From the sequence record NC_070874.1: 64,000 nucleotides of DNA. The stretch is one strand, 5' to 3'. This document shows, piece after piece, positions 44,263 through 44,760 of this stretch. The translations under genes and the position numbers were made by a program. The stretch's first letter is position 1. Each line of letters opens with the position of its first letter. The stretch comes from Escherichia phage vB_EcoP-ZQ2. The notes beneath the pieces were generated by a model. The model did no database searches and had not been told where the DNA came from. It saw only the letters and a list, made by a program, of their open reading frames with translations.

Positions 44263-44760
44263 TTATCTCCCATGGCGTAAGGTGTAGTTGTGATTCTTTA
44301 CCAGGTCTGCTTCTATAGTAGCCCGGTATGCTATAGCAGCATCTTTGGCTTCGCTATCCCCAAGAACACCAATGTTGAAGCTTTTAGTTCGTAGCTTACC
44401 TGTATGCGGATCATTCCAAGCAGCAGTCCAATATTCGTTGGTCTTCTTCCATTGTCTATACACACCGGTAGTGCCTGATGTATTGTCACTTCTTTTGCGA
44501 CGATTGCGACAGTTAATCATATGGGACACTAGTCTCATATTAATAAGTCGACAATCGGTTGGGATTCCATTGATGTGGTCAACTTCATACCCATCCGGGA
44601 TTGGTCCATTATAGTATTCCCAAATCCAGTTGTGCAGAAATACCCTCACCCCATGACGTTTAATACGGATGTACCCATCCTTTGCATTGGCATCATCGGG
44701 AGAATGTACTACAGCGAGTTCATGGGCAGGTTTATTCCAGTATCCTAATGGCTTGCTCAT
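44263..44760 (-). CDS. HNH homing endonuclease with C-terminal AP2 DNA-binding domain
   Basis: 165 aa; HNH_3-like HNWIWEYYNGPIPDGYEVDHINGIPTDCRLINMRL; AP2-like SGTTGVYRQWKKTNEYWTAAWNDPHTGKLRTKSFNIGVLGDSEAKDAAIAYRATIEADL; GAGGT RBS before the start. Confidence 0.8.
   Translation of the reverse strand: MSKPLGYWNKPAHELAVVHSPDDANAKDGYIRIKRHGVRVFLHNWIWEYYNGPIPDGYEVDHINGIPTDCRLINMRLVSHMINCRNRRKRSDNTSGTTGVYRQWKKTNEYWTAAWNDPHTGKLRTKSFNIGVLGDSEAKDAAIAYRATIEADLVKNHNYTLRHGR

Follow-up and report, generated by a model that had tools for sequence, protein, structure and literature searches.

Genomic context of the locus

The window, by which we mean the whole 64,000-nt stretch of Escherichia phage vB_EcoP-ZQ2 analysed here (NC_070874.1), carries the gene for a 3611-aa virion RNA polymerase on its plus strand and genes matching N4 gp42–gp49 on its minus strand. 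Megablast searches with positions 42800–46000 and 45000–64000 matched about 90–108 phage records, nearly all of them Gamaleyavirus (G7C-like, Schitoviridae) from E. coli and Shigella at 90–95% identity, and the window can therefore be assigned to a G7C-like, N4-like phage. Its nearest relatives in these searches are pSb-1 and HK2 (~93%). The locus considered here lies on the minus strand and, read 5′ to 3′ on that strand, comprises the following features:

44822–44983 (−): membrane-type (hydrophobic) ORF of 53 aa, the conserved flank of the locus; stop codon 8 nt 5′ of the hairpin
44774–44813 (−): backbone hairpin with a 15-bp stem and the 10-nt loop AAUACUCUCC (44789–44798), from folding and covariation
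44766–44769 (−): Shine-Dalgarno sequence GAGG, 5 nt 5′ of the ATG, read from the sequence
44263–44760 (−): putative HNH-AP2 homing endonuclease ORF, orthologue of G7C gp47.1; ATG start, 165 aa, TAA stop
44512–44640 (−): HNH_3 nuclease core (His-Me finger, HNN type), residues 41–83, from Pfam; catalytic candidates D61, H62, N74 and N83
44290–44469 (−): predicted AP2-fold DNA-binding domain, residues ~98–157, from a sub-threshold Pfam match and a modelled fold
44241–44262 (−): relic of the resident hairpin, consisting of the 3′ part of the loop (ACTCTCC), CCAG and the 3′ arm TCCGTTGGTTC, from alignments; HK2-type allele
44150–44230 (−): decayed remnant of a gp47.2-type downstream gene, from alignment with relatives

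The 3′ end of the 53-aa ORF (GACAAGCCGCCAGA) is conserved as far as N4. The ORF itself (MAQKLLLFVVVFVILMLLLIRILDVS...GGDKPPE) is kept from N4 to the G7C-like phages and stands without annotation in G7C and several other records. On the other side, the gene next after the hairpin in G7C, pSb-1 and Bp4 is gp47.2 (orf34), of 56 aa; in the window, as in HK2, a 30-nt deletion has taken its RBS and ATG and is followed by a stop.

The original prediction had remarked that mobile endonucleases mark recombination hotspots, which agrees with what we find 3′ of the hairpin. The tRNA-like island at 42985–44262 (−) holds one tRNA accepted by both ARAGORN and Rfam, tRNA-Ile(AAU) at 43103–43177 (−), and relatives differ in this region by their number of tRNAs (none in G7C, HK2 and pSb-1, three in Bp4, four in N4 and in the metagenomic genome L013) as well as by small ORFs gained or lost. 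Nuclease genes located at boundaries of exchange are a published pattern (PMC10448857), with which the variable tRNAs and small ORFs of this neighbourhood agree. Within the island, T-arm-like repeats (GGTTCGATTCC) at 43378–43392, 43445–43459 and 43536–43550 look like tRNA remnants. Further 3′, past the tRNA region, a strong hairpin of terminator type and its U run (AAGTCCCTCTTCGGAGGGACTT TTTTATTT) are found at 42856–42877 (−).

Domains of the putative endonuclease

The ORF is present exactly as it had been called, and so is the proposed fusion of an HNH motif to an AP2 domain. The nuclease part is a high-scoring match to HNH_3 (I-HmuI-type; Pfam PF13392, 62.2 bits, cut-off 24.8, E 3.5e-17), and the PHROG matches are HNH endonuclease families (PHROG 99, E 3.4e-35). 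In an alignment of 26 homologues D61, H62, N74, N83 and N86 are invariant, fitting the D-H...N...N pattern of HNN-type His-Me fingers. The AP2 profile (PF00847) reaches 28.3 bits over residues 104–151 (E 2.2e-6), under its gathering score of 33.3, and PF00847 is among the precomputed Pfam matches listed for homologues of the protein.

An AlphaFold2 model built from the 26-homologue alignment (mean pLDDT 85.8) predicts a beta-beta-alpha core, then three strands (100–129) and a long helix (135–157). The Asp-His pair with its downstream Asn residues (metal ligand) falls on a predicted beta-beta-alpha fold, and a three-stranded antiparallel sheet packs on a C-terminal helix in the manner of AP2. 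Foldseek matches of the model have weak E-values and a sequence search of the PDB returned no match. Both domain calls stand in our view, that of AP2 being drawn from the sub-threshold profile match together with the modelled fold.

The gene is intergenic, lies between the 53-aa ORF and the gp47.2 remnant and has its own RBS (GAGG), which makes it free-standing. Pairwise dN/dS among six intact copies is 0.09–0.16 (comparisons with dS of ~0.08–1.5) and indicates purifying selection, that is, a protein kept functional. The literature searched contained no experimental study, cleavage activity or cut site for either the window protein or G7C gp47.1.

Two short motifs near or within the gene were also noted. 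A GCC-box (AGCCGCC, the exact plant ERF/AP2 site) occurs at 44829–44835 (−), ~70 nt upstream of the endonuclease ATG, inside the 53-aa ORF at its conserved 3′ end. It was rejected as the AP2 target: the window holds 2 copies against 2.3 expected and the site is found in filled and empty alleles alike; its occurrence may be due to chance. A sigma-70-like match (TGCACA-17-TATAAT, 10/12) within the endonuclease ORF at 44608–44636 (−) is probably fortuitous, since promoter-like matches in the region number 10 against 5.8 expected.

A conserved backbone hairpin upstream of the gene

Upstream of the gene, the inverted repeat 44775–44784/44803–44812 described in the original prediction is exact and forms part of a longer hairpin, with a 5′ arm GAACCAGAGAGUUUU (44813–44799), the loop at 44798–44789 and a 3′ arm GAAGCUCUCUGGUUC (44788–44774). 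Its RNA fold has -24 kcal/mol (z = -4.05; 0/200 shuffles as good). Although suggested as a possible regulator of the endonuclease gene, whose expression it may or may not affect, the hairpin does not belong to that gene: it is part of the conserved backbone and occurs in every close relative, whether the gene is there or not. It follows the stop codon of the 53-aa ORF in every Gamaleyavirus examined and is also present in an N4-like group (L016–L022) and in N4 itself (L015). Among the phages sampled, those with the hairpin are of the N4, G7C and related Klebsiella/Salmonella types.

In a set of 18 distinct alleles, pairing in the 15-pair helix reaches 95.9% and 8 of the 15 pairs have changed on both sides. 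The covariation score of the stem is 0.545 versus 0.173 in shuffles (0/500 as good), and slid registers fall to 27–54% paired. The loop, A(A/C/U)UACUCUCC (in DNA letters A(A/C/T)TACTCTCC), is nearly invariant. Pair 10–37 is G.U in 13 of the 18 alleles and the closing pair U.G, likewise in 13 of 18; such pairs are C.A mismatches on the other strand, hence the hairpin is specific to the sense strand, which points to an element acting as RNA.

A covariance model of the hairpin has a single match in the 64-kb window (67.3 bits); 61 loci from N4-like phages further removed (gp46 ≤48% identical) gave no match, which leaves the idea of a hairpin general to all N4-like phages unsupported. Nor is it one of a repeated regulatory family, the loop motif being at chance level in addition to the single copy in 64 kb. 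Rfam has no family matching the hairpin, with no match at E up to 10 over 44770–44830. A tRNA or tRNA-like identity was rejected (no ARAGORN call, no tRNA-model match even at E 10), and a 16-nt similarity to the T-arm of tRNA-Ile is at chance level. An intrinsic terminator was rejected as well: the stem is followed by CAUCUGAGG with no U run, and a terminator scan made no call.

Early promoters of the N4 virion RNA polymerase (vRNAP) are hairpins too, with stems of 5–7 bp and a 3-nt loop that has the -11 base at its centre. The element described here has a 15-bp stem, a 10-nt pyrimidine-rich loop, a mid-genome position and sense-strand pairing, and was rejected as a promoter of this kind. Published vRNAP promoter hairpins are characterized by a purine at -11, a 7-bp stem in one example and location at the left genome end (PMC4496689).

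We regard the hairpin as previously undescribed, conserved in N4 and close relatives and absent from Rfam. Our best guess is that it serves as a transcript-end, processing or operator element that closes the replication gene block just before the RBS of the next gene.

Distribution of the gene and empty sites

Using the 621-bp cassette region as query, 74 phage records matched the flanking hairpin segment and only two of them, both G7C records, covered the gene. Empty sites are thus the rule, and alignments run uninterrupted across the junction in HK2, pSb-1, Bp4 and ten IMG/VR genomes. This is the presence/absence comparison that had been proposed together with the prediction; the case that would have spoken against a mobile gene, a filled site in all relatives, fails with 2/74 filled. 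Domains, sporadic presence and the empty-site alleles of HK2, pSb-1 and Bp4 all fit the free-standing HNH-AP2 homing endonuclease that had been proposed.

The window protein is 98.2% identical at the amino-acid level to G7C gp47.1, located at the same locus, and metagenomic copies occupy the same site (L140, 98%; L013/L106, 84%; L138, 83%; L139, 81%). The phage that holds the L013/L106 copy has a gp46 of only 83% identity. Orthologues of 81–84% identity lie directly behind the hairpin in backbones with either of two kinds of downstream gene: gp47.2-type in G7C and L140 (decayed in the window), DUF7740-type in L013 and L137–L139. In L137, a 67.7-kb N4-like metagenomic contig, the copy (2900–3375) has a nonsense codon at position 11 (AAT AAA TAA) and is otherwise in frame, from which we take it to be a freshly decaying pseudogene, as expected of a gain-decay-loss cycle.

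Anatomy of the insertion

The mobile unit is ~550 bp long, from 44263 to ~44806/44813. Compared with empty sites, 533 nt (44263–44795) are inserted between AAT and ACTCTCC of the backbone hairpin loop, as seen when both alleles are written out (single brackets enclose the insert):

Empty HK2 allele: ...GAACCAG TGGATTGG AAT ACTCTCC CCAG TCCATTGGTTC AATCTAAACT...
Window: ...GAACCAG AGAGTTTT AAT [ACTCTCC GAAG CTCTCTGGTTC ATCTGAGGTATTT ATG...TAA] ACTCTCC CCAG TCCGTTGGTTC AATCTAAACT...

The insert opens with an ACTCTCC of its own and then has a new 3′ arm and GAGG ahead of the ORF. Within the 5′ arm, the eight bases at 44799–44806 differ from the empty allele such that they pair with the new 3′ arm, which restores a perfect 15-bp hairpin upstream of the gene; in the window, these eight compensating bases and the 3′ arm are thus portions of the mobile cassette. 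Together, the new 3′ arm and the compensating bases mean that the backbone hairpin was preserved by the insertion, which also set the gene behind the hairpin-RBS arrangement used by the resident downstream gene. The hairpin-GAGG-ATG layout ahead of the endonuclease is the same as that before gp47.2 in empty-site relatives.

Adjoining the endonuclease stop codon is the relic of the resident hairpin, which matches the upstream copy (44773–44795) at 17 of 23 positions by manual count. The same relic is present in G7C, L140, L137 and L139; it is gone in L013 and L138, where the endonuclease stop overlaps the ATG of the DUF7740 ORF. Classical homing leaves junctions without a scar, whereas the borders here carry a partial duplication of 22 nt, which suggests an illegitimate event at the first insertion. 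The 3′ end of the HNH gene and the loop relic (GGGAGA/UCUCCC) were considered as a conserved second hairpin and dismissed (fold z = -1.1; mismatch in G7C). The stem variant CCAGAG...CTCTGG, present in the window, G7C, L013 and L138, was likewise dismissed as a self-immunity mark: two gene carriers, L139 (intact gene) and L137, have the CCAGT...ATTGG/TCTGG type instead. No sequence difference that could explain self-immunity separates filled from empty alleles.

Mosaic borders of the cassette

A 60-nt sliding comparison of the window with G7C and HK2/pSb-1 gave the following identities:

Upstream flank, 44986–44810: G7C 51/60, 52/60 and 51/57 (85–89%); HK2/pSb-1 60/60, 60/60 and 56–57/57
Cassette, 44809–44270: G7C 530/540 (98%); absent from HK2/pSb-1
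Downstream flank, 44269–44180: G7C 33/39 and 43/51 (~84%); HK2 22/23 and 47/51

One exchange point falls at the hairpin's 5′ arm and the other immediately behind the endonuclease stop codon. A G7C-type cassette of ~550 bp (98%) within HK2/pSb-1-type flanks must therefore have moved between backbones, and the mosaic is direct evidence of a transfer between lineages with almost no flank carried along.

Comparison with known systems

The closest counterpart is G7C gp47.1 (YP_004782178.1, Escherichia phage vB_EcoP_G7C), annotated as a "putative HNH homing endonuclease" and located between gp47 and gp47.2. It shares with the window the upstream hairpin allele and the downstream half-hairpin relic; the window differs in the HK2/pSb-1-like backbone around the cassette and in its decayed gp47.2 homologue.

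HNH(HNN)-AP2 proteins are an established family of homing endonuclease genes (HEGs) in phages, cyanobacteria and ciliates (PMC10448857, PMC2248197), for which both papers cite Magnani et al. 2004 (PMC520932). Members in the Xanthomonas phages Xp10, OP1 and Xop411 and the ICP1 IPA-HNH genes share with our protein the N-terminal HNN-type His-Me finger and the C-terminal AP2 domain, and as a family they are, like the window gene, free-standing, scattered in occurrence and liable to decay (PMC2248197, PMC10448857). The Xanthomonas phages showed no conserved sequence flanking these genes (PMC2248197), whereas the insertion site in the window can be placed to the base, within a conserved hairpin. 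I-HmuI, the HNH nicking endonuclease of Bacillus phage SPO1 (PDB 1u3e), differs in being intron-encoded and in having C-terminal DNA-binding modules other than AP2.

Like the free-standing seg/mob-type HEGs of T4 and the exchange-boundary nucleases (Barth et al. 2023, PMC10448857), the window gene is intergenic with short co-converted flanks and stands where a conserved module, the replication genes gp44–gp47, gives way to a variable region. The T4 HEGs belong to other nuclease families (GIY-YIG or other HNH types). A further difference is that the insertion in the window does not stand in plain spacer but rebuilds a structured element.

Proposed mechanism and alternative explanations

Taken together, the ORF is very probably a free-standing HNH(HNN)-AP2 homing endonuclease gene of a Gamaleyavirus (G7C-like, N4-like) phage. 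For its product we infer nuclease activity, a target and present-day homing as follows. The C-terminal AP2 domain would bind a specific DNA site in relatives without the gene, and during mixed infection the N-terminal I-HmuI-like His-Me finger would nick or cut near the bound site. Recombinational repair from the gene-carrying genome would then copy the cassette, with very short flanking tracts, into the broken genome. Since the hairpin is the feature common to all gene carriers, the conserved hairpin region is most likely also the recognition region.

The rarity of the gene, found in one isolate among dozens, could also mean poor spread, and we count it against homing. It fits an alternative in which an HNH gene that has stopped homing, being domesticated or in decay, is passively inherited and occasionally moved, without site-specific cleavage, by homologous recombination in a hypervariable region. 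Its pseudogene copy, a border duplication atypical of homing and the neighbouring general recombination hotspot of variable tRNAs and small ORFs fit this alternative too. We nevertheless consider it improbable: the catalytic residues are invariant, purifying selection is strong over dS of ~0.7–1.5, and cassette borders that lie a few bases at most from either end of the gene are better accommodated by targeted repair than by random crossover.

More improbable still, in our judgement, is a role that involves no self-spreading at all, either as a nuclease in phage competition or directed at the host (cutting host, satellite or rival-phage DNA) or as an AP2 transcription repressor. Domains derived from HEGs have been recruited into phage-satellite conflicts and into regulation (PMC10448857), and AP2 is a transcription-factor fold; on the other hand, the protein retains both domains of the HEG family in full and an intact nuclease core, there is no sign of a partner gene, and the sporadic occurrence of the gene in divergent backbones, each time at one site behind this hairpin, is what characterizes a site-specific mobile gene.

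Within the homing endonuclease reading, we tentatively put forward a more specific possibility, which we hold with considerable doubt, namely that the homing site is the DNA of a functional cis-acting RNA hairpin and that the cassette, in splitting its loop, rebuilds the element without splicing and borrows its hairpin-RBS context. The rebuilding of an essential hairpin by the cassette, which we term "self-healing" insertion, would be part of this same joint and equally doubtful reading.

As a gene, the endonuclease adds little, being a known kind of element already annotated in G7C. The new points are an insertion defined to the base in the loop of a conserved hairpin that the cassette rebuilds, and the hairpin itself. 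The locus offers a clean natural example, with a base-resolved insertion site, alleles both empty and filled, one decayed copy and two downstream contexts; with all those alleles available, homing, co-conversion length and target choice are directly testable in G7C-like phages. The hairpin is the more useful by-product. Present in a single copy, supported by covariation, specific to the sense strand and with a loop that hardly varies, it stands where the replication gene block ends and could be an undescribed regulatory or processing signal in N4-type gene expression.

A second HNH_3 ORF in the window

Between exonuclease-like and primase-like genes, the window carries another HNH_3 ORF of 190 aa at 49787–50359 (−), with profile matches to HNH_3 (E 1.2e-10) and, weakly, AP2 (E 0.041). 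Counterparts of 96–98% identity occur only in PBM-2, PBM-3, UE-M6 and PhAPEC5, and the G7C gene at its place is 52% identical. It looks like another sporadic homing endonuclease.
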